A stretch of DNA of 64,000 nt, from UHGV virus genome UHGV-2031204. One strand, 5' to 3'. A program made the translations under genes and the position numbers. The notes beneath the pieces are model-generated. The model worked only from the letters and a program-made list of their open reading frames with translations. It was not told where the DNA came from and searched no databases. Shown in pieces: positions 5,987-50,295 of this stretch. The DNA is from a virus. Position 1 is the first letter of the stretch; each line of letters opens with the position of its first letter.

Positions 5987-6039
5987 ACGTTACCCACCCT
6001 CCTTATAGCCGAGTTAAACTGCCTTTTTAGAGGACAGCC

Positions 6040-9811: not shown

Positions 9812-9854
9812 ACCAACACTACAATTGTATTAAACCTTATAAGGATTAAGTAAA

Positions 9855-11702
9855 ATGGCTAAAGAGTTTATTGACAATCAAAACGACGTTGTGACTGGTG
9901 CTGCTGGTTCCGCTGCAGATCCAATTCCGTCTTTCGGTGGCGCGGGAGCTGCTACTGTGGATAATACCAATGCGGCCAACGCTTTTGGTGGGATGTCTAA
10001 AAACATCTCTACTTTCGATAAAGCTTTCGGATACATGTCTTTCGTGTCCACTGCTTCTCAGTTCACCAGCCTGATTGAGAAGATGGCGGAGAAGAATACA
10101 TACCTGCGTAACTTCCGTTGGGGTGTTATTGACGGCATCAACTCTGAAATGGGTTCTGCTGCATACGTGGCTGGTCCGTCTGGCGATAACCATAACGAAT
10201 GGCTCTACGGCATCCTGTTCTTTGAACATGGCCAGTCCATCCGTTTCTACGAAATCAACGGTAAAGAAAACTACTACACCCTGGCGCAGCTGTTCAGCCA
10301 AGAAGGTGTGATGAACAACATCACTAACCAGATTGCAACTCAGCACAACCTGCCAAGCGTACAGTTCATGGTAATGAACTGCGTACCGGAACTGGGTAAA
10401 ACCATGAACGAAGAATGGGCTAACCAGCTCATGGGCCAGATTGCACTGGGTATCTTCGGTCGTCATTCCGGCTACCTGGGCTACCTGAAAATGACCCGTT
10501 CTGATCGCTTCACCGCGCAAGTCAGCGTAGTTGAAGAAGGTTCTGTAACTGATGTTAACGGTTCTGCACAACGTGCTGACCTGATGGTTGTGGTTGACCA
10601 TACTCGCACCGGCAACAACGATAATAACCCGACGCTGTTCTCTTCTGAACGCCTCCAGAATTATCCGAGCGTTGCAGGTGTTGGTTACATCAACCTCCGC
10701 CATAAAGGTAAACCTCAGACCCTGACTAACGGTACTCAGGACCTGCGTCAGCTGGAAGCCGAAGTGGTTGTTTCCCTGATGGATTCTCAGTCCTCTGGGG
10801 CAATGGCACCTATCGAGCGTCAGCTGATTGAACTGGCCGCGTTCGCACAAATCGCCACTATCGGTGGCTGGCGTGAACGTTTCATGCAGTCGCTGAACAA
10901 AACCGATCGCCGCTTCTCCCGCGTTCTGGAGTATGTAGAATGGGGCAGCGAAAAACCTGACCTGAGCAAAATCGACGGTAACCGTGAAGTTATCGAGAAA
11001 TGCCTGGACACCTTCGCTAACCCGACTGCGGCCCTGGTGGTGAACCATCGTGCAGGTAACGGTATCGGTGGTCTGTCTACTCTCCTGAGCGAAATCGGGA
11101 TGGGTAACACCAACGCACTGTACACCCTGTTCAATATCCTGGATAACATGGCCAGCAACGGCGCGACTAAGTTCAGCACTCGCTTCAAAGCACTGCTGGG
11201 CAATGTCACCAACTTCGAGTGCAAACACGTTGTTATTGCCGGTTGCCCGACCATCTCTGGCCAGTATTTCAGCAACAGCCAGAAACGCAGCTTCCAGGAT
11301 ATGGACTTGGTTTCCGCTCTGACTAAAGTGGGTGATAACCAACGCGATGCGATCGACTACATCAGTGCACAGTCCTACTCTCACCGCTATCTGAATGCGC
11401 GTGACCAGCGTCTGTACCTGCTGAAAATGGCTGCGTCCATGTTCGGTAGCAAACAGCCGCAGGTAACGGGTGAAGCGTCTGACCTGGCGATCAATCCGCT
11501 GTTTGGTAAAGCACTGGTGGAATACATTACTGAAAACTGCAACTTCCAGGTGAATGGTGTTACCGCAGCGAACAGCCTCACTCACTCTGTGTTTGTTAAC
11601 ACGGGTAATGAGAACTTCGCGCTGTCTGGTAGCGGTCCTAACGCATTTGGTAGCGATTTCGGTATGTCCTTCGCTGCAACTGACTGGCGTCCGACTTTCT
11701 AA
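9855..11702 (+). CDS. putative phage-nucleus shell protein (chimallin-like); alternatively another very abundant protein
   Basis: 615 aa with AAGGA upstream; strong bias to high-expression codons (CTG, CGT, GGT, AAC); Gly/Ala-rich N-terminal segment. Sits directly upstream of the RNAP beta-prime N gene, as phiKZ gp54/gp55 does (recalled, not searched). Size matches known chimallins (about 600-700 aa). Confidence 0.6.
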   Translation: MAKEFIDNQNDVVTGAAGSAADPIPSFGGAGAATVDNTNAANAFGGMSKNISTFDKAFGYMSFVSTASQFTSLIEKMAEKNTYLRNFRWGVIDGINSEMGSAAYVAGPSGDNHNEWLYGILFFEHGQSIRFYEINGKENYYTLAQLFSQEGVMNNITNQIATQHNLPSVQFMVMNCVPELGKTMNEEWANQLMGQIALGIFGRHSGYLGYLKMTRSDRFTAQVSVVEEGSVTDVNGSAQRADLMVVVDHTRTGNNDNNPTLFSSERLQNYPSVAGVGYINLRHKGKPQTLTNGTQDLRQLEAEVVVSLMDSQSSGAMAPIERQLIELAAFAQIATIGGWRERFMQSLNKTDRRFSRVLEYVEWGSEKPDLSKIDGNREVIEKCLDTFANPTAALVVNHRAGNGIGGLSTLLSEIGMGNTNALYTLFNILDNMASNGATKFSTRFKALLGNVTNFECKHVVIAGCPTISGQYFSNSQKRSFQDMDLVSALTKVGDNQRDAIDYISAQSYSHRYLNARDQRLYLLKMAASMFGSKQPQVTGEASDLAINPLFGKALVEYITENCNFQVNGVTAANSLTHSVFVNTGNENFALSGSGPNAFGSDFGMSFAATDWRPTF

Positions 11703-11731
11703 TAAGTTGGTAAGTAGTAAGCAGTAGTTGA

Positions 11732-11772
11732 GGGACAGGGGAAAACCCCCTGTCCCTTCCCTCTCTTTTTTT
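11732..11772 (+). terminator. rho-independent terminator
   Basis: Stem GGGACAGGGG / CCCCTGTCCC with loop aaaa, then a T-rich run. Confidence 0.65.
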
Positions 11773-11786
11773 GTTGAGGATTCGGC

Positions 11787-13394
11787 GTGGAACATAAACT
11801 AGAATATTACGGGATTTCGGGGCGACTAATTAGTCACGACAAGATGTTACGTGACTGTATACAAGAAGCGGAGGAAAAAGGCTACAAACCACCGATTATT
11901 ATCAATGACGTTGCTGCAACGATGGATACCATCGAAGCGTCGGAGATGATTAACCAAATACTCCAAAACCGAATCGTTGATGAAACACTCAACTCGGCTC
12001 CTATTTGCAGTCTGACCTGCGAATCACCTATTACCCATCGTTATAATCTTGGGCTACGTTGCCCACATTGCGGACATGTTGTTTCTGAACATCGGATTAC
12101 GTCCGATGTCTGGTTACGCGCCCCCGATGAGATGGGTAACTTTATCAATCCACGTTTTTGGTCTCTCTTTAATGCCTTCTTTGGCTCTAAGCTGAAAAAA
12201 TTTAATCGTAACAAAGTGACGGTAGAGCGCGGGTCTGATTTACTGCTGTGGCTAATCGATCCGTACTACCATCCAGAAAAGGACGAAGGAACACGTGCTC
12301 GCGTGGTGAAAAGAATACTCGGCGAACATGGCTTCGAACGGGGAATTCGAAACTTTATCGACCACCATCGAACCGTCTTTAATATCCTTACGTCCCCGGA
12401 AGCTTGGAAGGAGATTTATCCGCCAACGAAAAATAACCGTTATGAGAGTGAGCGCGTACGCTTAGAATGGCGTGAGTTCTTTCAGGAACAATCGTTCTCA
12501 TTCTTTCCAAGACACCTTCCGATTATTTCATCAAAACTGATCGTTACGGAGGAACGTCGACAAGGTATTTTTATCGATCCGGTTTATACCAGCGCTATCG
12601 ACGCAGTAAAAAATGTGGCGTTGTTGTACACGAATGCACGTCGTATCGAACCACGATTTATTATTCGTCGCGCAATCAAAGCGAATCGACAGCTTGCGTA
12701 TTTCTATATTGACCATCGTCAGGAAGTGATGGAAGGTAAACCTGGGTTCTATCGGGCAAAACTCGGGTCAACACACGTACCGTGGGGCGGACGTGTGACT
12801 ATCTCTCCTATCTCTGAACCTCACGATGCGTTGAAAGTTATTGCGCCTTGGCGTTGGTTGGTTCCGTTGGCGAGTGTTCACATCGAGAACAAGTTAGGTC
12901 GTCGTGATTATACACCTCGACAATGTGAGCGCATTATTGCATTTGCGGCAATGCAGTATGTACCGCTGGTACATGAAATTATTAATGAGTTGATTAAAGA
13001 ATCCCCCGGCGGATTCGGCTTAATGTTGGAAGTTCTGCGTAACCCAACATTGGTTCAACTTTCTATTCAGACATTGTTCATCTCAGCGGTACTGACAGAT
13101 GTAACACAATGTTCTCTGCGTATTTCTGATCGTGTCATCAAAGCGCCTAACGCTGATTTCGATGGCGACCAGTTACAATGCAGATTGGCAATCGACCAGA
13201 TTGAAATGGAACTGGGCATGGCTTATCGCCCAGACAACGGGTTTATGTCAAGCACGAATGTGGACGAGGTTTCGAGTTGTATGATTCTCCATAACGAGAA
13301 TATCAGCAACATAAACAGTTTCTTCCAGGATACTGAAGAGGACTTGGAAGCCGGTATCGCGCTTGACTCTGAATTATTAAAATTGGCGGGGTAA
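11787..13394 (+). CDS. multisubunit RNA polymerase beta-prime-like subunit, N-terminal fragment
   Basis: 535 aa; contains NADFDGDQ (the beta-prime catalytic Mg-binding motif) and an N-terminal C-x-x-C ... CPHC zinc-finger-like cluster; GTG start after GAGGA. Confidence 0.8.
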   Translation: MEHKLEYYGISGRLISHDKMLRDCIQEAEEKGYKPPIIINDVAATMDTIEASEMINQILQNRIVDETLNSAPICSLTCESPITHRYNLGLRCPHCGHVVSEHRITSDVWLRAPDEMGNFINPRFWSLFNAFFGSKLKKFNRNKVTVERGSDLLLWLIDPYYHPEKDEGTRARVVKRILGEHGFERGIRNFIDHHRTVFNILTSPEAWKEIYPPTKNNRYESERVRLEWREFFQEQSFSFFPRHLPIISSKLIVTEERRQGIFIDPVYTSAIDAVKNVALLYTNARRIEPRFIIRRAIKANRQLAYFYIDHRQEVMEGKPGFYRAKLGSTHVPWGGRVTISPISEPHDALKVIAPWRWLVPLASVHIENKLGRRDYTPRQCERIIAFAAMQYVPLVHEIINELIKESPGGFGLMLEVLRNPTLVQLSIQTLFISAVLTDVTQCSLRISDRVIKAPNADFDGDQLQCRLAIDQIEMELGMAYRPDNGFMSSTNVDEVSSCMILHNENISNINSFFQDTEEDLEAGIALDSELLKLAG

Positions 13395-13988: not shown

Positions 13989-13993
13989 TCGAA

Positions 13994-14026
13994 AAGAAGG
14001 GGATTGGGCACCCCCTTCTTTTTTCT
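13994..14026 (+). terminator. rho-independent terminator
   Basis: GC-rich hairpin (AGAAGGGG ... CCCCCTTCT) followed by a T-run. Confidence 0.55.
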
Positions 14027-17808: not shown

Positions 17809-17836
17809 AGCCCCAGGATATCCTGGGGCTCTTTAT
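17809..17836 (+). terminator. terminator-like hairpin
   Basis: Stem AGCCCCAGGA / CCTGGGGCT with loop tat, then a weak T-tract. Confidence 0.45.
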
Positions 17837-17921: not shown

Positions 17922-19550
17922 ATGCGCATTGAAAAGAATCGTGACCGTTTAGTGATAAAGTACGGCGAAAAAGAGGTCGCGTTTAATGGTTTCCGAAATG
18001 GACGTAAAGACGTGAATGTGCCAGACGTACGCGATAGTTTCGGACAGATCGTAACGCACGATAAAATTATGTTCATGGAAATCGAGCGTTATTGGTCAAC
18101 TTTAACACCCGAAGAGAAAAGCGAACTGTTTTCAGTTTACGAAGAATTAGAGTTGTTAGCTAATGAACCCCCAGAAGTTATTCGTGAACACGTCCCCACG
18201 CTCGTCGCGAGAATTGCTAAATTTCATCACGCAGATAGATTCCGCCAGCTTTATCCACACGGTTCGGTGTGGATTCCTCAAAACGTCCACGAAACGTACG
18301 AAGAGATGTCGTCGAATTATCCAAAAGAGATGACGTATATCGTACAAGATTATTACGAATTGGTGATTTTGTCTTTGATGACAAAACCGTTTATTCCCGT
18401 ATTCTTGATTTTGGACGCTTTTCCTGCAACACGTGCTTCTGTTGAGTCGAAGCGCAAAAGTGTTTATAACCTGACCTACTGCATGGAACTGTTGTCCGAT
18501 ACCGAGATTGCTACACTGCCAGCCATTACAAAGTTGCGTGAGTTTTTAGTGTCGGTGATTTCGAAAGTTCAGGACGGGGGGAGTAAAGGACCCAATACTG
18601 CAAACCTTACCGTCCTGGCATCTATCTGTGGCTACGGTACGGATATGGTAGAGGAATACATCATAGCGTTCGCTGTTATCCGATTAATTGCGATGAAGTT
18701 AATCGGTGCCGAACTACCACCAGGTACGATGGTTGAAAACAACATCGTGGCGGGGATGTATTTCAATATTCGACAAGAAATTGAAACGGGCTTCGCGGGA
18801 AAAATTTCCGGTCAAAACGTGATGCTAAAAGCGAATCCTGAGAAAATCATGTTCAACGGCGAGAAGGGGAAAACTTCGTCGATTGACCTGGTTCAAGCTC
18901 GGACTAAAGCACCAATGAAGGAATTCGTTCGTACTCAAGAATTCTTTAATGACTATCGTCGTGCGGTGCGTGCTTTGAATCTCGATATTGCTCCCGCTGA
19001 TGTGAAAGTGTTGATAGATTCCATCAACATTAACCATCAATATCCTTTCTACGAACTCTACGAATGGTTGGTGGCGGCAGTGATGCACCGATTTGCAGAT
19101 CGTCGTACATACAAGGAAATCGACGCAGAAGCGTTTAAGAATGCGATGGGTATATCCCAAGCCGTTTACATCTATTACGGAATGGCTGAGATTGCACAGT
19201 TGTTAAGTTGTGAAATGATCCGGGCACCGCTAAATGGCGGGTATCCCATCGAGCCAATCGATAATGAGATTAAAATAAAAACGGATAGATATTATCCACA
19301 AGCATACCGTAAGCATCGTAATACTTACGAACAATCAACATTGAAGGATTCTCTCAGCTTGTTGGTTCGTGAACATATCGCGCCGTTCAACTTCAATCTC
19401 AGGGCAACACCGGAAGCAGCCAGAATGTTACGGTGTGGGACAGTGATGTTGGACTATTCACCTCATCCGCGACTTCAGAACATGTTAGCAGAATTTCTGT
19501 TAATTCAAAACAGAAAGAAATGCGAAGAAGTAGCATGGTTTAATCAATAA
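17922..19550 (+). CDS. hypothetical protein (542 aa)
   Basis: Track ORF trimmed to the ATG at 17922 (GGAG 8 nt upstream), placing the promoter motif and terminator outside the gene. Confidence 0.55.
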   Translation: MRIEKNRDRLVIKYGEKEVAFNGFRNGRKDVNVPDVRDSFGQIVTHDKIMFMEIERYWSTLTPEEKSELFSVYEELELLANEPPEVIREHVPTLVARIAKFHHADRFRQLYPHGSVWIPQNVHETYEEMSSNYPKEMTYIVQDYYELVILSLMTKPFIPVFLILDAFPATRASVESKRKSVYNLTYCMELLSDTEIATLPAITKLREFLVSVISKVQDGGSKGPNTANLTVLASICGYGTDMVEEYIIAFAVIRLIAMKLIGAELPPGTMVENNIVAGMYFNIRQEIETGFAGKISGQNVMLKANPEKIMFNGEKGKTSSIDLVQARTKAPMKEFVRTQEFFNDYRRAVRALNLDIAPADVKVLIDSININHQYPFYELYEWLVAAVMHRFADRRTYKEIDAEAFKNAMGISQAVYIYYGMAEIAQLLSCEMIRAPLNGGYPIEPIDNEIKIKTDRYYPQAYRKHRNTYEQSTLKDSLSLLVREHIAPFNFNLRATPEAARMLRCGTVMLDYSPHPRLQNMLAEFLLIQNRKKCEEVAWFNQ

Positions 19551-19580
19551 TTTTCGGCTTGACCTAAAGGAGCATTTACA

Positions 19581-21287
19581 ATGGCAATGAAACTTTTGAA
19601 ACTACAAATGTATCCAGTGTACGAAATCCCAGAGCAGATTCGTCGTCGCATTGGGTTCTTTGAATCGCAGCACGCTTTGGATGAGTTAGTGGATGTGGTT
19701 GCAGAACACGGTGATAAAGCAACAGGTTCTCGGGCTTATCAAGAAGCCTTGGGGCAGATTGTGGGTTTCGACAACACCCCAACTGGCATTGAACGTCCAT
19801 TCATTAACGTGAGTGATAACGAATCGCAACCAATCCATTTTGCGTATAATTCTCGCGATACTGGTGTGTATAACTTCGTGGCGATTATTGTTTCGAACTC
19901 GTTAAATGACACACGGACTCAAGAAACACGTTATGTTGTTTCCGGGTATACGTCCCAGGCAGAACGATCCATGTTTAATCACCTGCCGGATGACATGGTT
20001 CTGTATATCAACGAAATATACGGGTTACAATGTACGTATATCACCGATGCGTTTGGTGGACGTCGTATCAACCCGGATTCCTTCCGTTTGATAGACAACT
20101 ATGTGTTGTCCAAGACATTAACCGCAGACAGTTATGTAGAGCACACCATTGACGTTATTTCTACCGCGAAAGCAGCTGATATGGTGCGTAAAGTGGTGAA
20201 AGCTGGTGAGCAGATTGAGCTGGATAACAACACTGTTATCTCTGCTAATTGCCAGCGTGCACCACAGTTGATGTCTAGTCAATTAACACGACCAGAATCT
20301 TTCGTGACAGCTATCTCCAATTCCTTCATTAATACCATGGGGATTGAAACGGAGTTGAGTGCAGTGGACAGTTTCTTCGCAGGAGATCATTCTCTTGGGG
20401 TAGAATCTGAACTTAGCCAGATCGGGGTGATGCGTAATTTCAATAGTTACGAATTGGTGAAGGCTTTTAGAACCGCCATATCCAACGCCACGTCCGATAT
20501 GACTAGCGGTTGGAACGTTGCGAACCGTGCAGCATTCAAACTGTGCGACCTGCGTAACGCGGTGATTAATCCCGAAGACGTAGATGCTGCAATTGCGCAC
20601 TCACTGGCTGTCGCAGCCCGTCGCGGTTTTGGTGAAATTGAACGCACCGATGATTGGGTAGGACGTAACAACTATTCTACTCAGGGTTCGTTGGTGGCAT
20701 TTGATTTAGCCATGTTACTGGGGCCTGTGGTCACTCGTAACCTTATCGGCGAAGTGACTTTCTTCTACGATAACCGTATGGCGGATATTGCAACACCTCC
20801 TCTGCTGCAAGTGTCAAAACACAACGTTGGGGCATTAACTGAAGACGGATTACCGGATGTGTTAGCACGTCGCTTCTTAAGTGACTTACAAGGCGTATTC
20901 TTGCAAGTGACTAAACACAACCGTATTCGTTGTAAGATGACCGTAACGTGTATCGTTGGGGTGGTTTCACGTATTGAAATCGAAATCGATGGTGAGCTGC
21001 CTGAGTATTATACTCATGCGTCGTTCATGAAAGCACGTCTGCATTGTGGTACAACGACTGACCTTCAGTACACGAACCAGTTAGCTGCAGAAACAGCGCA
21101 GCTGATGAACAAAGTGGAAGAAGGGTACCAAGAATTCAACCGTGGTCAGAACCGTTCGAATATCCTGTCGAATATTCCAACTGCCCCTGTGTCTGCACCT
21201 ACGAGCCTGGGTAGCTTCGGTAGCTTTGGTGGTGGCGATATGTCAACCTCTGCGCCAGTGTCTGGCTTTGGTGCATTCGGCGAGTAA
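19581..21287 (+). CDS. hypothetical protein with FG-motif C-terminal tail
   Basis: 568 aa; AAGGAG upstream; C-terminus ...SLGSFGSFGGGDMSTSAPVSGFGAFGE. Confidence 0.6.
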   Translation: MAMKLLKLQMYPVYEIPEQIRRRIGFFESQHALDELVDVVAEHGDKATGSRAYQEALGQIVGFDNTPTGIERPFINVSDNESQPIHFAYNSRDTGVYNFVAIIVSNSLNDTRTQETRYVVSGYTSQAERSMFNHLPDDMVLYINEIYGLQCTYITDAFGGRRINPDSFRLIDNYVLSKTLTADSYVEHTIDVISTAKAADMVRKVVKAGEQIELDNNTVISANCQRAPQLMSSQLTRPESFVTAISNSFINTMGIETELSAVDSFFAGDHSLGVESELSQIGVMRNFNSYELVKAFRTAISNATSDMTSGWNVANRAAFKLCDLRNAVINPEDVDAAIAHSLAVAARRGFGEIERTDDWVGRNNYSTQGSLVAFDLAMLLGPVVTRNLIGEVTFFYDNRMADIATPPLLQVSKHNVGALTEDGLPDVLARRFLSDLQGVFLQVTKHNRIRCKMTVTCIVGVVSRIEIEIDGELPEYYTHASFMKARLHCGTTTDLQYTNQLAAETAQLMNKVEEGYQEFNRGQNRSNILSNIPTAPVSAPTSLGSFGSFGGGDMSTSAPVSGFGAFGE

Positions 21288-21309
21288 AAGATTAATCAAG
21301 GACTCTTAA

Positions 21310-22689
21310 ATGAAAATTATTGAATTCTACAAATCGTTTCTTAAATCACAAGGATTCGATTTTGAAAACGATTTACTCACTCGTGACGGTGGTGAACCGG
21401 CAGAGTTTACGTATAACAAAGTGAAGCGCCGTTTGGCGCTTCCTACCCCAGCGATGATTAAGCGTGGCATGGAAGACGACGATGGTCGTGAATGTCAAGC
21501 ATTTCATCCACTGTGTGAATCGGTACTGGCAGGTGAATCAGGGACAATTCGTTTCCTGAAGAAATCCATTAATGCGAACCTGTTCATTCGTTCCTTTGCA
21601 TTAATCGACGCGATTCTGGAAACGGGGGCAAGTGGTAAAGCAGTACGTTCAGCTTCCTACAAGAAGTTCTTAACAGAACAGATTTGCGAAGGGATGAAAG
21701 ATCCGACGTTCGATGAGCGTTTGGTAAAATCCTGGGAAGCGGTTAAGGCGTTCGTTTACGCACAATTGGAAAAAGATAAAAAGCACAAGATCACCCAGCT
21801 TTTTATCGCATCTGATTTAGTTATCGATGGTGTGAAGTTTAACCGCGTAGCTAATTATCGGAATATGTTCGAAGAAGAATCGTTAGATGGTACCGCAATG
21901 TACTTCTCTGCGAAGCTTCAACGTAAACAAGACAAAATCATTATCCACCGTTTACTGACCACCGTGTTCGGTTGGTATCCGAGCGTAACGGGGTCTAATG
22001 ATTCGCGTCCGTATTTCGGTTGCTTAGCGCGTGGTTGGGCGCAGTACGTTGTGAATTATAACAACGTCGTTAAGGGATTGCGCGACCACACTTCTTTACG
22101 TCCGTTGGAAGATGAATGGATTTCTCAGCTGGACAATATGGATATTTACGATAACGTCATTCAGACCTTACCGTATAACACCGGCCCACGTTCTGACAGC
22201 CCTGAACGTGATACCACGGCGCATGACTTCCGTATTGATCGTGCACAGGCACCGCAGCAGATCCCACAAAAACGTGCATCGGATGCAGATAAAGCAGATA
22301 AGTCCGATCCGATGGAATTCTTCCGCGCTCGTGAACGTAACATGGCCGCGCATAGTCCTTATGGGAATTTGACGCCAGCGATGCAACGTTACGCTGAGCA
22401 GCACGGAACAACTAACCCCGCCAACGGTATGGTAAGTCGAATTTCTGTTGTGGATGCGTTTGGTGGTGAGCGCAAGGTTTCACCTTTCGGTGGTCAGAGT
22501 AACTTCGGTGTAGGGAATACTGGAGGTTCTTTGGCAAGCACCTTTGGCGGAGGGAATAATTCTTTCGGCGGGAATGTAGGGGGGACTAGCGCATTTAGCA
22601 CAAGTTCAGCATTTGCATCGAATAGCAGTTTTGGCGGGCAGCCGCAAAGCAGCTTCGGCGGATTTGCAACTTCGGCATTTACGCGTTAA
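21310..22689 (+). CDS. hypothetical protein with long FG-repeat low-complexity C-terminal tail
   Basis: 459 aa; the last ~80 aa carry at least 8 FG dipeptides (AFGG, PFGG, NFGV, TFGG, SFGG x3, GFAT) spaced by S/T/N/G/Q-rich linkers. Confidence 0.6.
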   Translation: MKIIEFYKSFLKSQGFDFENDLLTRDGGEPAEFTYNKVKRRLALPTPAMIKRGMEDDDGRECQAFHPLCESVLAGESGTIRFLKKSINANLFIRSFALIDAILETGASGKAVRSASYKKFLTEQICEGMKDPTFDERLVKSWEAVKAFVYAQLEKDKKHKITQLFIASDLVIDGVKFNRVANYRNMFEEESLDGTAMYFSAKLQRKQDKIIIHRLLTTVFGWYPSVTGSNDSRPYFGCLARGWAQYVVNYNNVVKGLRDHTSLRPLEDEWISQLDNMDIYDNVIQTLPYNTGPRSDSPERDTTAHDFRIDRAQAPQQIPQKRASDADKADKSDPMEFFRARERNMAAHSPYGNLTPAMQRYAEQHGTTNPANGMVSRISVVDAFGGERKVSPFGGQSNFGVGNTGGSLASTFGGGNNSFGGNVGGTSAFSTSSAFASNSSFGGQPQSSFGGFATSAFTR

Positions 22690-22700
22690 GTGAAGTATAA

Positions 22701-22728
22701 AAGAAGGGACCGTGTCCCTTCTTTTTTT
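22701..22728. terminator. bidirectional terminator hairpin
   Basis: Stem AAGAAGGGAC / GTCCCTTCTT with loop cgt, then T7; between convergent genes. Confidence 0.6.
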
Positions 22729-23050
22729 AATCATTACCGATGGTGCTAATAATCTCACTGACCGTTCCGACGTCGGGTACGATTAGTTGCGTGATTTCAG
22801 GGGTGAAATTCATGGGGTCTTCTAGCCCGTTTAATAGCATCATCGGATAGATAATGATATCGGCGTAACCTTTGAGTTTACAGTAGGCGTAGAAATTGTG
22901 GACCTCAGGCCAACTGTAGCGTGGGTCAACATTTTCTATTTTAGTTTTCGGGTGTTTACGCAGATAGTCTGTGTAATCGTGCATCACTTTCCATGTCGTG
23001 GTGTAAGGCGCAGGTATGAATTCTTCTAGGGTAATAAAATTGTCTAACAT
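22727..23050 (-). CDS. hypothetical protein (107 aa)
   Basis: Small minus-strand ORF between a terminator and a divergent promoter region. Confidence 0.45.
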   Translation of the reverse strand: MLDNFITLEEFIPAPYTTTWKVMHDYTDYLRKHPKTKIENVDPRYSWPEVHNFYAYCKLKGYADIIIYPMMLLNGLEDPMNFTPEITQLIVPDVGTVSEIISTIGND

Positions 23051-23060
23051 AATCGTTCCT

Positions 23061-23093
23061 AAAATAAGTGAGATAGATATTATCCTACTGAAT
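23061..23093 (+). promoter_or_regulatory. conserved promoter-like motif, copy 5 (TAGATATTATCCTACTGA)
   Basis: About 35 nt upstream of the RNAP beta-like gene at 23114. Confidence 0.45.
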
Positions 23094-23113
23094 CAACCTA
23101 AAGGAGCATTAAA

Positions 23114-25351
23114 ATGAAAACGCCAGTAGAGCTAATGAGCAGTGTGGCTGACCGTGAGATTAATATCACCGAAGTATCAGGTGCAAGGGCATCGATGGTA
23201 GGCAACCATATGAAGTCTGCGGTCCCTATCGACAATCCTGAACCATCGCCACATTTTACAGGGGCAGATATAAACTACCACGATTTTCTGTTCAATGACG
23301 TTGTAGAAGATCCCGGTAGCATCTGCCACTATATGACCAAAGACGGTCGTCAGCGCCGCGCGACGTTTACACGTTATGGTCGTCGTGGGGATTCTAAAGC
23401 GTTGGAACATGCTATCTTCTTCCGCCGTGCAGAAATGAAGGGCGGTAAAACCATGATAGATGTGCTGGAGATTAACTTCTATACTAACCACGACAACATC
23501 TTCTCATCTGAGAAACGTGAGTCGATGAAACTGCGTAGTATTTTACGTGGCGAAACCGATCAGTTGGAAAAGGATGAAATCCTTACAACGATGTCGTGTA
23601 TGGTGGAAGGCGAGTACGCCGATAGCGTCGTGTTACCAACCGTTACGATTTCGCATCCTGATATCATCGAGGATTCTTACACCATCTCTGAGTACGCCGC
23701 CCAAAAACTCCACGGTTATGGTTTGAAAATCGTTGAAAAGACGCTACGTGAAGACGAGTTTTTACTGGATACTTACGGTTATATCGATCCGAACGGTAAT
23801 CGCGTCCCACGGTATTTCCCGGATGTGGGGGAGGCTATTCGTGACGATGGGTTGGTCATTGCATCGCGTCGTTTCGATGAGCTTTACGGTGCAATTGATG
23901 CGTCGCTTGGGGAAACCCAACACGTCTCTCCGTTCTTTGATAGTTGCGAATATGTGGATGCCGATCCCGTCCATTATAAAGCACGTCTTGCAGGCGACAA
24001 AGAACTGATGGAACGTAGCGGTACACGTATCGTCGATATCCAGGTGTGGCGTGATGAAACGTCTTGCGCGAATGGTGCTAACAATATTTCTTGTACCGAA
24101 GAGAACAAACGAGAACTGGATAAATACGCATTAGCATTGAAAGACTATTACAATGCCATCGTACGATTCTATTTCTCAATGTCCCGTGACAAAAATATTA
24201 TCTGGTCGCCGAAAGCGTGCGTGTTGTTGGAAAAAGCGTTCGCTTCTGAAACATACGAGGTCTATCACGAGTTTCGTGAAGAGATACGCGTGGTGATTGA
24301 TGAAGCAATTCGTCGTGGTGAATACGGTAAAGAAAATGTCAGTCAGCAGATTCTTTCTAAGTTGACCTCGCCAGTACAACGTGGACTCAGCGATCCCATC
24401 AACACGTATACCATTCGTATTGCTGTTCGTTATCCGATCCCGGTAACGGTGTCGTCTAAGATTACCGACCGCTCGGGTACGAAAGGGATTGTTGGGCGTG
24501 TATTGCCCGTTGAGCAGATGCCGATTAACGAATTCGGTGAACGTGTTCACGTTTTACGTTCGATGAACGCTGTAATTCGTCGCTCGACTTATGCAGCATT
24601 ATTCCACATGTATTGGTCAGCTGCGTCTGAACAGTTGAAAATGCGTCTTAAACCATTGCTGGATGAAGGACGTATCAGCGAGAGCTGGGAAATCCTGATG
24701 GATTATCTATCACGCTATAATCCAGAATGGGCCAATACACTACAGGCAACGCATCCTACGGAGGATTTACAACGCGAACTTTTCAAAGAGATTTACGATT
24801 TTACAATCCGTATTTACTTACCACATGAACTTGACGACACGCCAGTCGATATCAGTGAACGGTTGGGTGAATTTAAACCGCGTAAATCCAAACTCCTGAT
24901 TACTAATTTCGATGGTAAACAGGAATGGACAAAAAATGAGTTTTACGTAGGTGGTGTGGAAACATTACGTCTGGATAAAACAGGTCGTGAGTTTTCCAGC
25001 ATCTCGTCAATGTATCTGAATTATCTGGGTACGATAGATGCGTCTAACCAAGGCCGTGGTTCGTATCCGATAAACTATAAAACGCTAAAATGGGCTGGTC
25101 CTTCGGAAGAACGACTGTTAGCGGGTTATGGTCCAGGTAACTACGAAGAAGTTCACGACAGGGCAAATAACCCTGCGGTGCATCGTGAGATTTTAGTAGG
25201 GCTTTATCGATCTCAAACCCCGTCTAATCCGGGTCCACTGGTAGACCGGAATAAATTCCCGTTAGGGGATTCACAGATTGACAGGATGATGAAAAACATC
25301 CACAGCTGTGAAGGGTTTGAATTGGTGAAAATGAAAAGGGGCGATGAATAA
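23114..25351 (+). CDS. multisubunit RNA polymerase beta-like subunit (C-terminal region)
   Basis: 745 aa; DRSGTKGIVGRVLPVEQMP...RSMN parallels E. coli beta [20 protein letters not shown]...SRMN; AAGGAG upstream. Confidence 0.6.
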   Translation: MKTPVELMSSVADREINITEVSGARASMVGNHMKSAVPIDNPEPSPHFTGADINYHDFLFNDVVEDPGSICHYMTKDGRQRRATFTRYGRRGDSKALEHAIFFRRAEMKGGKTMIDVLEINFYTNHDNIFSSEKRESMKLRSILRGETDQLEKDEILTTMSCMVEGEYADSVVLPTVTISHPDIIEDSYTISEYAAQKLHGYGLKIVEKTLREDEFLLDTYGYIDPNGNRVPRYFPDVGEAIRDDGLVIASRRFDELYGAIDASLGETQHVSPFFDSCEYVDADPVHYKARLAGDKELMERSGTRIVDIQVWRDETSCANGANNISCTEENKRELDKYALALKDYYNAIVRFYFSMSRDKNIIWSPKACVLLEKAFASETYEVYHEFREEIRVVIDEAIRRGEYGKENVSQQILSKLTSPVQRGLSDPINTYTIRIAVRYPIPVTVSSKITDRSGTKGIVGRVLPVEQMPINEFGERVHVLRSMNAVIRRSTYAALFHMYWSAASEQLKMRLKPLLDEGRISESWEILMDYLSRYNPEWANTLQATHPTEDLQRELFKEIYDFTIRIYLPHELDDTPVDISERLGEFKPRKSKLLITNFDGKQEWTKNEFYVGGVETLRLDKTGREFSSISSMYLNYLGTIDASNQGRGSYPINYKTLKWAGPSEERLLAGYGPGNYEEVHDRANNPAVHREILVGLYRSQTPSNPGPLVDRNKFPLGDSQIDRMMKNIHSCEGFELVKMKRGDE

Positions 25352-27450
25352 TGAAGGGCACTCCAGTTCACGTGCGTGATCTGTGTAAACTGAACTCGGA
25401 TCAGGTGTGGCTATTGCGCGGCAGATATGAAGTGACGTTCGATGACGGGATAACCTTAAACATGTCAGGACGCCACATTAAAATCAGTTGGCCTTATTGG
25501 GGGCTAACACGATTTTATCCGCAGATCCCAATCAGTTCGCAAATGGCGTATAAACATGGCGACACCGCTACAGATGACGCACATCTGAAGTTTATGTCAT
25601 TGGCAGCTGTGGCAGCACGTAAAGCGGGTGTGGATTTAGCAGATACCCGCTATTTATTGCAGCAGCACGTCTATGCGGATGCGTTTAACTTATCGGTGAA
25701 AAATCTGTTGTCGTATTGTGTCACGATTGACTACGATACGATGATGGAAATTTACCAACACCGAAATTTTACGCAGATTCATCAGTGGGCACAAATGTAT
25801 CCTACTGGGTACGACGAAGAAGGTCGGGATATGATCGAAGAAGCGTATCTTCTTATCGAAGATATCTTCAAAGACCCACAACTTCGTTTAAACCCTGTGG
25901 TGATGTCGGTCTTGGATAAAACCATCAAAATGAACCAGGTTCTCCAGGCGTATATACGCGGGAAAACGTCAGAGATTGATTCTCGCGTTTATTCTAACCA
26001 GGTATGGGAAGGTTTCTTTACGGGCCTACATTCTGTAATTAGCCGTCTGAAAGAAGCGGGAGCGACGTCACGTTCTCACCTGTATAATACCGATAAAATC
26101 GCCGATGCGGAATATGCGTCACGTAAGCTACAGTTAGCAGCCAACGTGTTAATGTATTTCGAATACGACGATTGCGGTACGCATCATGTTCACCGCCACA
26201 CGTTTACAGAAAGTAAACTGGAGCGTAAGAAGTACGATGCGATGGTAGGGATGCGTTATCGTTTTGAAGGCGTGGGAGGCCCGTGGCTACGATTCGAGAA
26301 AGGGGAGTTTGAGAAAGTCTTAGGTAAACCTATTGAGTTTCGTACCGCGATGTGCTGTAAGGGGATGGCACGTCAAAGCATTTGTGCAACGTGCATGGGT
26401 GATTTGATTTATAACCTTTCGCCGGGAACGTCCCCAGGTCACTTGGCTTCAACCTCGATATCTGAAAAGGGTACGCAGGGGATTCTCTCAACGAAGCACT
26501 TGGACTTCTTACGTTATCTGCTGAATCTGGTACTGACTCCGAGAATGCGGGATTATCTTGGGGAGTATAAACACAACTCCGTAAAAGGGTTGAGTTTACG
26601 GGAGAAACCGCAGTACGGTAATTGGGATGAATACCAACTCGTTATTTCTGATGAAGTCTATTCTGAAATCAGCCAAATCGCGTATCATGACGATTTGGAA
26701 GTGATCGACGAAACGGCATTGCCGGAGATTAACGAACTGACCTTTTTGCGGTTGGATGAAGCTGGGAATGTGTTGGCTGAAGATCCCATTGACGTCCGTA
26801 TGGGGGTTTGTGGTAACTTCTCGAAAGCCTTCTTGCATTTCTTCCTGAAACAGCGCGATAACATTACCTTCCCGTCGAAGAAGCTGGTACGGATTCCCCT
26901 GAAAGGATGGAAACCGAGTTGGCCGATACTAATTTATACGAATCGGTCTGAATCTATGGCGGAGTTTGTAGCAGGGTTAGAATTGAAACTTCGTTCGGTT
27001 GCGTCTGATAAATCGGATACTTTCGAACAGTTCTCTGATGACTCAATGCGTTTGAGCAAGAAGTCGGGTAAGGTAAAACCAACGACTCTGGTTCAGATGC
27101 GCGGTGCTACGGAGAAACAATGTACGCACGCGTTATTTGATGTGTTTAAATATATCCAACGTAAGCTCGGTGGTATTCCGATGACACACATCGCGATTAT
27201 GCTGGCGATATCACGCGTTGAATCACCGACCAATCCTTTCCCGGCGGTTGGGTTTGATAGTGAAGATGCTGATGTGATGGATGGCAAACGTTTCGAGGAT
27301 CACAATACGTTGATTGCGATGCGTTCAGCTGTACCGATGTTGTTATTCGAAGGCCAACAGAAAAACCTGGACAACGTGCGTTTCTACACGTCGCGTAAAC
27401 GTCCGGCGTCGTTATACGACAATACGGTGGCCGCGACTATCATTGAGTAA
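25351..27450 (+). CDS. possible RNA polymerase beta-prime-like subunit, C-terminal part
   Basis: 699 aa; TAATG overlap with the beta-like gene; Cys cluster CCKG...CATC and GTQGILSTKHLD weakly resembling the beta-prime bridge-helix motif SGYLTRRLVD. Weak evidence. Confidence 0.4.
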   Translation: MKGTPVHVRDLCKLNSDQVWLLRGRYEVTFDDGITLNMSGRHIKISWPYWGLTRFYPQIPISSQMAYKHGDTATDDAHLKFMSLAAVAARKAGVDLADTRYLLQQHVYADAFNLSVKNLLSYCVTIDYDTMMEIYQHRNFTQIHQWAQMYPTGYDEEGRDMIEEAYLLIEDIFKDPQLRLNPVVMSVLDKTIKMNQVLQAYIRGKTSEIDSRVYSNQVWEGFFTGLHSVISRLKEAGATSRSHLYNTDKIADAEYASRKLQLAANVLMYFEYDDCGTHHVHRHTFTESKLERKKYDAMVGMRYRFEGVGGPWLRFEKGEFEKVLGKPIEFRTAMCCKGMARQSICATCMGDLIYNLSPGTSPGHLASTSISEKGTQGILSTKHLDFLRYLLNLVLTPRMRDYLGEYKHNSVKGLSLREKPQYGNWDEYQLVISDEVYSEISQIAYHDDLEVIDETALPEINELTFLRLDEAGNVLAEDPIDVRMGVCGNFSKAFLHFFLKQRDNITFPSKKLVRIPLKGWKPSWPILIYTNRSESMAEFVAGLELKLRSVASDKSDTFEQFSDDSMRLSKKSGKVKPTTLVQMRGATEKQCTHALFDVFKYIQRKLGGIPMTHIAIMLAISRVESPTNPFPAVGFDSEDADVMDGKRFEDHNTLIAMRSAVPMLLFEGQQKNLDNVRFYTSRKRPASLYDNTVAATIIE

Positions 27451-27453
27451 ACG

Positions 27454-27480
27454 AGAGGGGCCTGCGCCCCTCTTTTTTTG
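27454..27480 (+). terminator. rho-independent terminator
   Basis: Stem GAGAGGGGC / GCCCCTCT with loop ctgc, then T7. Confidence 0.65.
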
Positions 27481-27492
27481 TAAGAGGGGAGC

Positions 27493-29482: not shown

Positions 29483-29515
29483 GGGTGTATATTGTGTACA
29501 CCCTTTCTTTTTTTG
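29483..29515 (+). terminator. rho-independent terminator
   Basis: Stem GGGTGTA / TACACCC followed by a T-rich run. Confidence 0.55.
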
Positions 29516-32488: not shown

Positions 32489-32492
32489 GTGT

Positions 32493-32535
32493 AAGGGAGT
32501 CGTAAAGACTCCCTTAGCTTTTTTCTTTTTTTTTC
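32493..32535 (+). terminator. rho-independent terminator
   Basis: Stem AAGGGAGTC / GACTCCCTT with loop gtaaa, then a long T-rich run. Confidence 0.65.
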
Positions 32536-32569: not shown

Positions 32570-33424
32570 ATGATTGACATTTATACCGATTACGCCGCCG
32601 TTCTTACCGTCAATCGTGCGGAAGAACGTGCTGCGCCTTTCCTGGACTTAGTAACGCTGTGCATGGATTACGGTTACGATGTTGCGTTAAGCGATGTGTA
32701 TTGGCAACCGTCGTCTGATCCTGCCGACGAAACAGTAAGACTGGAAGGGATTATTGTAAAATGCGCCGTGGCGTTAGGCAACCGTTTAGGCGTTGCTTTA
32801 AACCCACAAGAAGTTTTCCGTAAACCGAAAGAGACCGTACGTATTCTAGATGGTATTACGTCTAAATTCGAAGAGTTCGAAGACACTGATACGTTATACG
32901 GTCTCGTGATGTCTGGAGAAACGCCAGAGTTTATCCTGGAAAGTATCTGCCGTTACGTATACGGTGATGACAATATCCATTTTGAAGATTTGGTCATTCG
33001 TGTTTCACCCCGTGTAATGACGGTGATGCGCAACTATCTTTCAGCTATGGTTGTGGATGAACAGCTTGCTGTAGGTAACGATGCGCGTCTGACGCGTATT
33101 GCAGAATACTTGCGTCTTTATCCGCAAAACCCTTCTGCGTTCGTATTCCTAAACCTACCTGAAGATCCCGATTTGACGGTTGTCCAACAATCGTTAGTGT
33201 TTGACGTCGAAGATTACAGCGAAACAGAATTACTCGAGATGTATACGGTAGGGCTTTCGATTATCGATAACGATGACTTCGATGACGCGTATGCCGATCT
33301 TTCGACGAACTTAGAGAAACTTAATAATGATGGGTTACAACCCATTACTGTTTTACAACCTGCATTAAAAAGCCTACGGCTGATTTATCAGGTTGAGGAG
33401 GCAGAGCACGATGACGAGGTTTGA
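32570..33424 (+). CDS. hypothetical protein (about 284 aa)
   Basis: Track ORF trimmed to the ATG at 32570 (AAAGG upstream). Confidence 0.55.
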   Translation: MIDIYTDYAAVLTVNRAEERAAPFLDLVTLCMDYGYDVALSDVYWQPSSDPADETVRLEGIIVKCAVALGNRLGVALNPQEVFRKPKETVRILDGITSKFEEFEDTDTLYGLVMSGETPEFILESICRYVYGDDNIHFEDLVIRVSPRVMTVMRNYLSAMVVDEQLAVGNDARLTRIAEYLRLYPQNPSAFVFLNLPEDPDLTVVQQSLVFDVEDYSETELLEMYTVGLSIIDNDDFDDAYADLSTNLEKLNNDGLQPITVLQPALKSLRLIYQVEEAEHDDEV

Positions 33425-34712
33425 GTTCTTAGTAGCGGCATGTAAAGCAGAGGCATGGCGACGTCTGGTCTGGCGCATTGCTATTTTTAACATGTCGGTA
33501 TTTCCAACAGGGCGCGAAGAACCCGAAGCGTTTGATATAACGTATATCGACGGCTTACCGCATTATTACGCTGTAGAAGACGGCAAGGGCAGTTGGGAAC
33601 CGATTACTGACGGCGTAAAGGACCAGGAGCTGTTTGTCCCTGAAGAACAGTTCGAGCTACGCCCTGACGATTATCCCGGTTTAGACGGTCCTATTCCCAC
33701 GACAGTAGGACGATACGTTTTTAACTGGATTGTTATCTGGTATGCATTTGGTACACGCTTACCCTATCTGGCGATTTCACAAAACCCGTTGGAATATCGC
33801 AAAGAGATGCATCGGCGTTGTTTAGACCATGAAACCGATGAGCCAGAAAACGAAGGTGCAATTCGACCGAGTATGATTGAGCGCTTTGTAAGCGGTTTAC
33901 ACGAACTCGCGCCACTTACGTCAGGGATTGCACCAACCGGTACGTTACGAAGTCTCACAGTGCATCCTGATGCGTATAAAATCCGCGATGCGTTACTGTT
34001 GAAGCACAAAGACGAGTTAGACGATCCTGCCGTTATCGTTAAGATTGAAAAAGCGTTGGATGAGTTAGACAAAGAATGGTTGTCGGGTGACCAATCTATT
34101 GAGTTTTATAACTCGCCGAAATCGCGGATGCGTCGACGTAAATTAATGCTGATGTACGGTATCGAATCGTCTTTTCAGGAAGGGGGTCATTACACGCTCA
34201 TTCCGAACGCGTTAGTTGAAGTTGATAAGGCGGGGATGGAAAACCTGGTTGCGAAATTCAACTCTATCCGTGAAGGTTCATTCTCTCGTGGTGCGGAAAC
34301 AGCGAAAGGGGGTGAGCAGGTACGTATTATCCAGATGATTTTCCAGAACCACCGAATCGTCCCTGGTGACTGCGGAACGAAACTAACGTACCCGGTTGTG
34401 ATTACCGAAGATAACGTAAAACGTTACGTTGGGATGAATGCGATGGTTAATGGTAAACTGACACCATTGACTGAGGAATATTTAAAACAACAGTTAGGTA
34501 AGGTGGTGCGGTTACGCCGACCCATCTTATGTCAGTATGGCCACATCGACACCTGCACAGCGTGTTCGTCTGCGAATAAAGGGGAAGAACCTCGCGCAAT
34601 CGCTGCGGATATATCCTCGGCGTTCTCTAACGTTATGTCCGTGGCAATGGCCGCGATGCATGGTAAAGAGACAGTGGTACACGAATTTAATCCATCGATC
34701 CACATTACGTAA
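33411..34712 (+). CDS. hypothetical protein (about 433 aa)
   Basis: Track ORF trimmed to the ATG at 33411 (GGAGG upstream); C-terminal Cys cluster CQYGHIDTCTACSS. Confidence 0.55.
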   Translation: MTRFEFLVAACKAEAWRRLVWRIAIFNMSVFPTGREEPEAFDITYIDGLPHYYAVEDGKGSWEPITDGVKDQELFVPEEQFELRPDDYPGLDGPIPTTVGRYVFNWIVIWYAFGTRLPYLAISQNPLEYRKEMHRRCLDHETDEPENEGAIRPSMIERFVSGLHELAPLTSGIAPTGTLRSLTVHPDAYKIRDALLLKHKDELDDPAVIVKIEKALDELDKEWLSGDQSIEFYNSPKSRMRRRKLMLMYGIESSFQEGGHYTLIPNALVEVDKAGMENLVAKFNSIREGSFSRGAETAKGGEQVRIIQMIFQNHRIVPGDCGTKLTYPVVITEDNVKRYVGMNAMVNGKLTPLTEEYLKQQLGKVVRLRRPILCQYGHIDTCTACSSANKGEEPRAIAADISSAFSNVMSVAMAAMHGKETVVHEFNPSIHIT

Positions 34713-35240: not shown

Positions 35241-35281
35241 TTACCCTACTCCCGAAGGAGTAGGGTAACGTTTATTTTTTT
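35241..35281. terminator. bidirectional terminator hairpin, near-identical to 40599..40642
   Basis: Stem TTACCCTACTCC / GGAGTAGGGTAA with loop cgaa, then a T-run; between convergent genes. Confidence 0.65.
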
Positions 35282-40592: not shown

Positions 40593-40598
40593 AAAAGA

Positions 40599-47552: not shown

Positions 47553-47611
47553 GGGGGCCCCTCATTCTAGGGGCGTGTAATTGGGTTATATAACCAAAGG
47601 AAATAAACGAA

Positions 47612-48883
47612 ATGGCAAATTTCGCAAAAACTCGCGCCGCTCGTGAATCGATGGAAGCGGCCGATGAAGTAATCGACGGTATCAGCAACGTTGAACCGGC
47701 AGAAGAGAACCTGGACGTCCAACTTGCGGACGTAGCATCTATCGACGGTCAGCTCGATCAGCTGGAAACCGACGGTGAAACCCTGGCTGCCGATACCGAG
47801 CGTACTGAAGACGCTATCGAACAGGCGGAAGAAGCCGTTGCTAACGGTGAAGAAATGCCGGAAGAAGCGGTTGCCCTGCACGAAGTGGCACAGGAATCCA
47901 TCGCACGTCGTTGGTGCCTGGAACGTACTAAACTGGCACGCGAATCCTATCGCCGTGGTCGTGGTATGACTGCTGCTGCCCAGGAAGGTTGGAAAGAAAC
48001 CCTGAAAGATCTTTACGATCGTTTCATTCAGTTCTGTAAAGAAGTGATTGCGAAGATCAAAGACCTGAAACTGAAATATTTCAACGTCGGTAAGACCGCA
48101 CAGAAACGTGCGAAGAAATATCAGGAAATGCTGCGTAAGCTGGGCAAACAGAAGAAAGATGAGATCTCTGGTGGCTTTATCACCAAGCTGTCTATCGAAG
48201 GTAAATTCGATGCCGCTGGCTCTATCGCTATTGCGAAAGAAGTTACCGCAGGTAAAGCTAAAGGTTCCATCGCTGTTCTGGAAAAACAAGCTGGTGAAGC
48301 TGTGACTGCCGTTACCAAAGGTGACGATGACGCATTCAAAGCAATGCGTGGCGATCAGCCGGTAGAACTGTTTGGTAAAGCTGCTTCTAAACTGCACACT
48401 CTGCCGAACTTTGAAAAAGGTGATGCGTCTAAACTCCTGGCTCTGCCGGGCAACGCTTACGTTCAGGCTGGTACTAAAGAACTGGCTGGCGGCCACAAGT
48501 TCACCGCAATTGCTTTCATGAGCACCGGTGACGCTTCTGACGATAAAGACGTGAAAACTCCGTCTGTTTCTGAAATGGCTGGTGCTGCTTCTGCTCTGGA
48601 AGCGATCGGTAAAGGTTTCGAAGCCGTACTGAAAGATTTCCGTGCTTACGATTCTGAAATCGTGAAGCTGCAACAGGCTGCTGAGAATGCTGCTAAGGCG
48701 CTGAACAACGAAAAAGACGATAGCAAGTGGGATGGCCTGCGTAACGCACGTCAAGCTGCCGATTGGTCTGTTAAGAACTACCAGACCCTGAACCGCGCAG
48801 TTAGCTATGTTGCTAACACCGTTATTAGCGGTCTGAATGGCTACCTGGGTGCTGGTATCGGTGCTTACGAAAAATCTAAATAA
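47612..48883 (+). CDS. highly expressed protein, tandem paralog A (possible head internal protein)
   Basis: 423 aa; strongly codon-optimised; starts MANFAKTRAARESME, acidic N-terminal region, ends GYLGAGIGAYEKSK; paralogous to 48966..50231. Confidence 0.8.
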   Translation: MANFAKTRAARESMEAADEVIDGISNVEPAEENLDVQLADVASIDGQLDQLETDGETLAADTERTEDAIEQAEEAVANGEEMPEEAVALHEVAQESIARRWCLERTKLARESYRRGRGMTAAAQEGWKETLKDLYDRFIQFCKEVIAKIKDLKLKYFNVGKTAQKRAKKYQEMLRKLGKQKKDEISGGFITKLSIEGKFDAAGSIAIAKEVTAGKAKGSIAVLEKQAGEAVTAVTKGDDDAFKAMRGDQPVELFGKAASKLHTLPNFEKGDASKLLALPGNAYVQAGTKELAGGHKFTAIAFMSTGDASDDKDVKTPSVSEMAGAASALEAIGKGFEAVLKDFRAYDSEIVKLQQAAENAAKALNNEKDDSKWDGLRNARQAADWSVKNYQTLNRAVSYVANTVISGLNGYLGAGIGAYEKSK

Positions 48884-48965
48884 TCATTTAGATTCGTAGT
48901 TCCGTACAGTTCTTGAAATAAATCATCAGGGGAACAATACGTTCCCCTTAGAGGAAAAGCTTAAA

Positions 48966-50231: not shown

Positions 50232-50249
50232 TCCCTGATTGTTTAGTAA

Positions 50250-50295
50250 GAGAACCACCCTGTAATGGGGTGGTTCTCTCTTTTCTTTTTTTTTC
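50250..50295 (+). terminator. strong rho-independent terminator
   Basis: Stem GAGAACCACCC / GGGGTGGTTCTC with loop tgtaat, then a long T-rich run ending in T9. Confidence 0.7.

Follow-up and report, generated by a model that had tools for sequence, protein, structure and literature searches.

Two adjoining genes in a 64 000-nucleotide stretch of the virus genome UHGV-2031204 (the window) almost certainly encode the C-terminal halves of the two large subunits of a non-virion RNA polymerase (nvRNAP) from a nucleus-forming jumbo phage (Chimalliviridae). Both are open reading frames (ORFs) on the + strand that start with ATG. The first, 23114..25351 (745 aa), corresponds to the C-half of the beta subunit (beta-C), its orthologues being gp71-73 in phiKZ and gp51 in Asesino; the second, 25351..27450 (699 aa), corresponds to the C-half of beta-prime (beta-prime-C), with gp74 of phiKZ and gp52 of Asesino as orthologues. 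The analysis establishes the orthology, the conservation of catalytic and structural residues, the gene order and the operon anatomy, and nothing was found that contradicts the nvRNAP assignment. We infer the timing, translational coupling, localization and activity of the pair.

Identification of the polymerase subunits

The phiKZ nvRNAP comprises the beta-like gp71-73 and gp123, the beta-prime-like gp55 and gp74, and gp68 as an integral sigma-like fifth subunit (PMC8287921). Its structure is available in PDB entries 7OGP (a cryo-electron microscopy structure), 7OGR, 8QUE and 9RJS. In a search of all PDB sequences, 23114..25351 matches 7ogp_C (PHIKZ071, i.e. gp71-73; E = 4.2e-29, residues 21-737), the AR9 nvRNAP chain 7s00_C (E = 4e-14) and many bacterial beta subunits (E of about 2e-5). 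The second protein matches 7ogp_D (PHIKZ074; E = 8.7e-32, residues 8-684) and AR9 7s00_D (E = 2.8e-4). Among the PHROGs, beta-C belongs to phrog_3295 (E = 1.7e-251) and beta-prime-C to phrog_3015 (E = 1.1e-223), both families being annotated 'RNA polymerase beta subunit'. The Pfam scores are lower: RNA_pol_Rpb2_6 (PF00562) reaches 24.3 bits on beta-C, just above the cut-off of 23.4, and RNA_pol_Rpb1_5 reaches 15.8 bits on beta-prime-C, below the cut-off of 28.5. Judged from their sequences, both proteins are homologous to cellular RpoB and RpoC yet lie outside the curated cellular Pfam families.

An earlier note on this DNA, made from the sequence alone, had proposed that the two ORFs, overlapping at TAATG, form together with 11787..13394 a multisubunit RNA polymerase whose subunits are split into N and C fragments. 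The ORF list and the junction sequence bear out the two reading frames and their overlap, and 23114..25351, 25351..27450 and 11787..13394 find their matches in chains C, D and A of 7OGP, respectively. Set against RpoB, RpoC and the phiKZ nvRNAP subunits, both members of the pair found matches, and 25351..27450 fell into no unrelated family.

Jumbo phages of this kind have two RNA polymerases, and the pair could in principle belong to the virion-packaged enzyme (vRNAP), which serves the early genes. Both enzymes are made of split beta/beta-prime homologues that the PHROG annotations do not tell apart, and 25351..27450 cross-matches the vRNAP family phrog_2962 (E = 1e-6). This assignment is nevertheless very improbable. 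The top matches of the pair are nvRNAP chains and are near full length, the gene order is that of phiKZ gp68-gp75, and a query with the phiKZ vRNAP protein gp149 found nothing in the window. A much better vRNAP beta-prime orthologue is present at 33393..34712 (+ strand), a homologue of phiKZ gp80 that is separate from the nvRNAP genes (phmmer against gp80, E = 2.1e-45; phrog_2962, E = 3.4e-169). The phiKZ record annotates gp80 as a structural head protein, and the protein is listed as a vRNAP subunit in PMC8287921. In addition, the orthologue of 11787..13394 in Asesino, gp040, is an nvRNAP subunit that localizes to the nucleus when tagged with GFP (PMC11724907).

Conservation of catalytic and structural residues

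The two proteins and their partner were aligned with the phiKZ, Asesino and Escherichia coli RpoB/RpoC sequences, with the phiKZ functional residue numbers taken from PMC8287921. Every catalytic or structural residue that was checked is retained and none is lost. Residues 444-515 of beta-C align with E. coli beta 1060-1131. The lysines of the double-psi beta-barrel (DPBB), K449 and K457 (nt 24458-24484), correspond to K386 and K394 of phiKZ and to K1065 and K1073 of E. coli. The GTKG motif that contains K457 matches E. coli GNKG (K1073), PVEQMP matches PIEDMP, and the canonical LNPLGVPSRMNIG aligns with LRSMNAVIRRSTY in the window. The beta C-terminal motif reported in the earlier note therefore stands for GTKG and PVEQMP, on the strength of this alignment and of the Rpb2_6 score above its cut-off, and falls for its last element, RSMN. 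In the alignment RSMN pairs with E. coli NPLG, and the counterpart of SRMN is IRRST, seven residues downstream (MRRSN in phiKZ); RSMN is thus a chance look-alike of SRMN.

The Cys cluster and the weak bridge-helix-like motif that had been noticed in 25351..27450 are both real and are homologous to those of phiKZ gp74 and E. coli beta-prime. The bridge helix spans aa 229-266 (nt 26035-26148, + strand), with V229-V266 equivalent to phiKZ L242-Y279 and to E. coli beta-prime around 778-805. The zinc ligands C275, C336, C345 and C348 correspond to C288, C341, C350 and C353 of gp74 and to C814, C888, C895 and C898 of E. coli beta-prime, and the sequence DDC275GT matches E. coli DDC814GT. The trigger helix (aa 360-378, T360-I378) and H383 (together nt 26428-26499, + strand) align with E. 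coli ...GEPGTQLTMRTFH936, in which H383 is equivalent to H936. In the partner gene 11787..13394, NADFDGD at aa 455-461 corresponds to RpoC 458-464, within an alignment that covers RpoC 329-495.

These residues also bear on the idea that the pair consists of degenerate, inactive polymerase-derived proteins co-opted for another role. The very low likeness to cellular polymerases (24 bits to bacterial beta, with Rpb1_5 under its cut-off) would fit such proteins, but the phiKZ orthologues are equally far from bacterial polymerases and form an active, structurally solved enzyme (PMC8287921). The retention of the DPBB lysines, EQMP, the four zinc cysteines, the bridge helix, the trigger-helix histidine and the NADFDGD of the partner, together with the 75-92% conservation of the proteins among relatives, makes a loss of activity highly implausible.

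Gene order and the remaining subunits

A tblastn search with 23114..25351 gave matches in 277 jumbo-phage records, the best being the Erwinia phages Asesino and phiEaH2 (about 77%), with SPN3US-like Salmonella phages at about 70%. The window is collinear with Asesino gp35-gp67 and, from phmmer searches of phiKZ proteins against all window ORFs, with phiKZ gp55-gp90. Counterparts on the + strand start at 11787 (gp55), 15104 (gp65), 16249 (gp66), 17144 (gp67), 17838 or, as discussed below, 17922 (gp68), 21310 (gp70), 23114 (gp71 and gp73), 25351 (gp74), 27493 (gp75, a helicase), 30108 (gp77), 33393 (gp80), 37100 (gp84), 44922 (gp89) and 46039 (gp90); those of gp82 (35280), gp87 (40643) and gp88 (43597) are on the - strand. 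Because the matches form this phiKZ-ordered series across the window, the pair is orthologous rather than paralogous to the phiKZ nvRNAP genes.

The N-half of beta-prime (beta-prime-N) is encoded on its own gene at 11787..13394 (+ strand, 535 aa from a GTG start), the orthologue of phiKZ gp55 and Asesino gp40. It matches 7ogp_A in the PDB search (E = 1.5e-38) and phrog_2987 (E = 1.9e-163, annotated RNA polymerase beta subunit). It carries the catalytic NADFDGD (nt 13149-13169), with its DxDGD core, and the split between the two halves falls after the DPBB.

Immediately upstream of beta-prime-N, at 9855..11702 (+ strand), lies a homologue of chimallin, the nuclear shell protein, in the same position as phiKZ gp54. 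Along the entire protein it shares 50% identity with Asesino gp39, which has been demonstrated experimentally to be chimallin (ChmA; PMC11724907). The PDB search gave no match for this protein, and a phmmer search with phiKZ gp54 against the window ORFs found nothing, so its identity rests on Asesino gp39 and synteny. On this evidence, the chimallin neighbour marks the phage as nucleus-forming. A 649-aa ORF on the - strand (9846..11795) covers the whole chimallin gene in a region of locally raised GC content (10001-12000, GC 0.50 versus about 0.45). Most likely it is non-coding, a shadow of the + strand gene, which is strongly conserved. Further along the window, the tandem paralogous internal head protein genes 47612..48883 and 48966..50231 (phrog_2497) are similarly shadowed by long antisense ORFs, 47567..48754 and 48948..50258.

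The earlier note had found no fifth subunit in the window; one is in fact present at 17922..19550 (+ strand, 542 aa), a homologue of the sigma-like integral subunit gp68 of phiKZ. This protein matches 7ogp_B (PHIKZ068) in the PDB search (E = 4.6e-10, residues 70-481), gp68 itself by phmmer (E = 2.7e-13) and phrog_3209 (E = 1e-153), and the gene order gp67-gp68-gp69-gp70 is kept. The ORF list extends its start mechanically to GTG 17838. The true start is most likely ATG 17922, since the alignment with Asesino gp47 begins there and a Shine-Dalgarno (SD) sequence and a promoter-like motif precede it. The next ORF, 19581..21287, was tried as the fifth subunit and rejected: it has no PDB match, and the gp68 homologue is the ORF before it.

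The earlier note was right that a beta N-terminal fragment (beta-N) is not in the window: phiKZ gp123 and Asesino gp94 queries against the six-frame translation of the 64 kb gave only noise. No other member of an RNA polymerase PHROG was found among the ORFs scanned (gene-like ORFs of at least 400 aa and some smaller ones). In Asesino, gp94 follows two genes after the one for the major capsid protein. The window breaks off within its own copy of that capsid gene (62764..64000), so that by synteny beta-N is expected about 3 kb beyond the right end. The features of the nvRNAP type that are present in the window are thus the gp71-73, gp74, gp55 and gp68 homologues, chimallin and a second (virion) split polymerase gene.

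Putative transcription and translation signals

Upstream of the pair, a hairpin followed by a T-run at 22699..22732 (fold -16 kcal/mol, z = -5.6; also found in Asesino) lies between the + strand gene 21310..22689 and a - strand ORF, 22727..23050, and isolates the pair from upstream transcription. The latter is a conserved small ORF of 107 aa (phrog_3455, function unknown; Asesino gp50). Within a long run of + strand genes it alone is on the - strand, standing between the gp70-like gene and beta-C and diverging from the beta-C promoter region.

The 63-nt gap in front of beta-C contains an AT-rich, promoter-like motif, CCTAAAATAAGTGAGATAGATATTATCCTAC, at 23058..23088 (+ strand), 26-56 nt 5' of the beta-C ATG. 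According to a review (PMC7598289), the jumbo phages that encode RNA polymerases each possess a characteristic, conserved early-promoter motif, an AT-rich sequence of about 10 nt that the virion polymerase reads. The motif fits this description and is therefore regarded as a putative early (vRNAP) promoter; it is kept 5' of Asesino gp51 and in the element of E. coli 98232 described below. Its core, AGATATTATC, occurs in five exact copies on the + strand (1914, 9715, 9795, 19287 and 23075), all just upstream of gene starts; four are intergenic, and the remaining one, at 19287, falls within the 3' end of the ORF before it. When one mismatch is allowed there are 16 matches compared with 3.7 expected, a count that was equalled in none of 100 shuffles. 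The copies at 9715 and 9795 precede chimallin, and a one-mismatch copy precedes the gp68-like gene.

Inspection of the intergenic regions, by which the phage's own motif was found, revealed a longer recurrent form, AAAATA-N7-8-(T)AGATATTATC(C/T), at 1914, 9715, 9795, 17776/17876, 19287 and 23075. It precedes + strand genes, among them chimallin (two copies), the gp68-like gene, the gp69-like gene and beta-C. A second variant, CAGATATATATTACCTAGGTGAG, occurs at 50311-50332 and 58567-58588, before 50358 and 58835. The recurrent motif and its variant are probably the early promoters of this phage. A scan for sigma-70 promoters performed no better than on shuffled sequence (26 versus 28 expected). 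The octamer TATATTAC, which we take to be a phiKZ-like early-promoter core, is not enriched here, with two copies against 2.06 expected.

Translation of beta-C would start from the SD sequence AAGGAG at 23101..23106 (+ strand), 7 nt before ATG 23114; its context, CCTAAAGGAGCATT, recurs before other genes, for example 19581. At the junction of the two genes (25327..25353, + strand), an SD-like AAAAGGGG at 25327-25334 is followed by GAATAATG. The junction itself reads GAATAATGAAG: the TAA stop codon at 25349-25351 shares its final A with the ATG at 25351, giving a 1-nt overlap that is identical in Asesino and the E. coli 98232 element. This arrangement suggests that translation of the two genes is coupled. 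It is possible, though rather doubtful, that the overlap reflects mere genome compaction and that each cistron is initiated independently. The SD-like sequence 17-24 nt before the second ATG would allow independent initiation, and phiKZ separates both genes by 30 nt with a separate SD, so that coupling is inessential to the system. Against independent initiation, the exact GAATAATG junction is kept in Asesino and the E. coli element although the proteins have diverged by about 25%, and the products are 1:1 partners in one complex. Translation of the pair is probably coupled. The long 699-aa start of beta-prime-C at 25351 is supported by the alignment of residue 8 onward with phiKZ gp74 from its residue 8 onward; in public annotation the protein is often called as 635 aa from a downstream ATG at 25543, and beta-prime-N as 499 aa.

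Directly after the beta-prime-C stop codon, the terminator scan found a GC-rich hairpin with a T7 run at 27453..27481 (+ strand; GAGAGGGGCC-TGCG-CCCCTCT). Its fold of -16.8 kcal/mol (z = -3.7) was matched by none of 200 shuffles, and it is kept in Asesino and the E. coli element. The hairpin appears to form the intrinsic-terminator-like end of a two-gene unit. With the promoter-like motif, the overlap and this terminator, the pair therefore forms a self-contained bicistronic unit. An Rfam scan of 11000-35500 found no group I intron and no other family.

Hairpins of this GC-rich type with a T-run occur in nearly every intergenic gap of the window (925-978, 5939-5990, 13989-14025, 17809-17830, 22699-22732, 27453-27481, 29483-29515, 32492-32530, 35241-35279, 40593-40642, 51027-51060 and 52775-52805). 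Several are bidirectional between convergent genes, such as 35241-35268 and 40597-40625, which have near-identical stems, TTACCCTACTCC...GGAGTAGGGTAA. Gene starts are often only 10-20 nt from a T-run (for example the helicase at 27493 and beta-prime-N at 11787), which implies read-through or very compact promoters.

Proposed role of the pair

The following mechanism is drawn from work on phiKZ, AR9 and Asesino (PMC8287921, PMC7598289, PMC11724907). The injected virion polymerase would transcribe the pair early from the motif at 23058-23088, and the transcript would end at the hairpin at 27453-27481. The 1-nt stop/start overlap would couple translation, yielding the two polypeptides in similar amounts. 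After translation in the cytoplasm, the pair would assemble with beta-prime-N, beta-N and the sigma-like fifth subunit into a five-subunit enzyme without alpha and omega. In this complex, beta-C would supply one DPBB (with K449 and K457), the flap and a contact surface for the fifth subunit; beta-prime-C would supply the bridge helix, the trigger loop and the zinc domain, and beta-prime-N the Mg-binding DFDGD. The complex would then be imported into the chimallin-bounded nucleus, where it would transcribe the middle and late genes. Assembly-dependent import into the phage nucleus is described in a preprint (bioRxiv 10.64898/2026.09.21.753271).

The assignment of the pair to the nvRNAP has some weak points. 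The likeness to cellular beta and beta-prime is weak, with Rpb2_6 barely over and Rpb1_5 under the Pfam cut-off; beta-N lies outside the window, so that the complete enzyme is not seen; and orthology is the basis for the presumed non-virion status and early expression of the pair, for its coupled translation and for its import into the nucleus.

A more far-reaching idea is that the conserved unit is an adaptation of Erskinevirus and the proposed genus 'Bapsvirus', in which the C-halves pair co-translationally and only pre-assembled subcomplexes are licensed for nuclear import. We consider this very improbable, and the overlap may instead be plain genome compaction. If such licensing were real, its tuning could contribute to carrier-like persistence in bacterial isolates.

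Lineage and annotation

Identical copies of beta-C, beta-prime-C and beta-prime-N are each found on between 59 and 121 contigs, the longest of about 225 kb. Their sources are NCBI assemblies under the names Shigella flexneri, Salmonella enterica and E. coli, together with a Caudoviricetes metagenome-assembled genome from the human gut. In the Salmonella, Shigella and E. coli isolate assemblies, over 100 contigs of about 220-226 kb carry exact copies of the proteins of the window. Circular 222-kb relatives in E. coli 98232 (NZ_CP173450.1) and Enterobacter ludwigii (NZ_CP134650.1) are filed as 'plasmids'; in these elements the pair is about 80% identical in nucleotide and 88-92% identical in protein sequence to that of the window. 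The recently proposed genus 'Bapsvirus' has been described as Chimalliviridae with genomes of about 220-226 kb and no PhuZ, and a carrier state and persistent lytic phages have been reported (PMC12768965; bioRxiv 10.1101/2024.12.31.630880). As the contigs and circular relatives fit these descriptions, the phage of the window probably belongs to this group from Salmonella, E. coli and Shigella assemblies.

The pair carries little weight as a discovery. An nvRNAP with split subunits belongs to the core features of chimalliviruses, and its structure has been solved. Public databases already contain these very proteins, in part under the name RNA polymerase, beta-prime-C appearing there as 'DNA-directed RNA polymerase subunit beta-prime'. 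The earlier note thus recognized correctly a system that is already known, in a phage lineage that has been described but is uncultivated. The practical value lies in annotation: both in the numerous Salmonella, Shigella and E. coli assemblies with this phage and in the elements of E. coli 98232 and E. ludwigii, the genes are labelled 'hypothetical protein', often with a shorter, truncated start for beta-prime-C. In addition, a clean candidate for the early-promoter motif of this uncultivated jumbo-phage lineage (AAAATA-N7-8-TAGATATTATC) and its operon boundaries can be taken from the window.

Comparison with known RNA polymerases

The catalytic core elements of the pair align residue for residue with bacterial RpoB and RpoC, whereas the phage subunits are halved and the overall sequence similarity is marginal. 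We know of no alpha or omega subunit in phage enzymes. The nvRNAP of the Bacillus phage AR9 (PDB entries 7S00 and 7S01) likewise has split beta and beta-prime subunits and a promoter-specificity subunit, with detectable homology. It differs in its uracil-containing, template-strand promoters, in that the phage forms no nucleus and in its lack of an N-terminal beta-prime zinc domain (PMC7618050).

The phiKZ enzyme shares with the window the fold-defining motifs, the domain content of each polypeptide, the neighbouring genes (gp68, gp69 and gp70 upstream and the gp75 helicase downstream) and, presumably, the five-subunit composition, the gp55 and gp68 homologues being within the window. The proteins are of low similarity (full-length E of 1e-29 to 1e-32), and the gene structures differ, as seen in a comparison with the interrupted regions 2923-5761 and 18275-21595 of the phiKZ stretch. 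In phiKZ, beta-C is interrupted (gp71/gp72/gp73, with the unannotated gp72 between GGKG and MPIDE) and beta-prime-N is interrupted before DFDGD (gp55/gp56 HNH/gp56.1), whereas both genes are continuous in the window. A 30-nt spacer separates the two phiKZ genes instead of the 1-nt overlap, and beta-C of the window is about 45 residues longer, with insertions around aa 280-300 and 360-395.

A megablast search with the pair found no similar DNA among the phage records of the August 2025 collection, and the comparison with other phages therefore had to be made at the protein level. At this level gp51 and gp52 of Asesino (Erskinevirus) are 76.9% and 74.9% identical in amino-acid sequence to the two proteins, and the SPN3US (Seoulvirus) orthologues are about 70% identical. 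Asesino and SPN3US are of other genera than the window phage. Their genes stand in the identical order, with the same overlap, the same motif upstream and the same terminator downstream.

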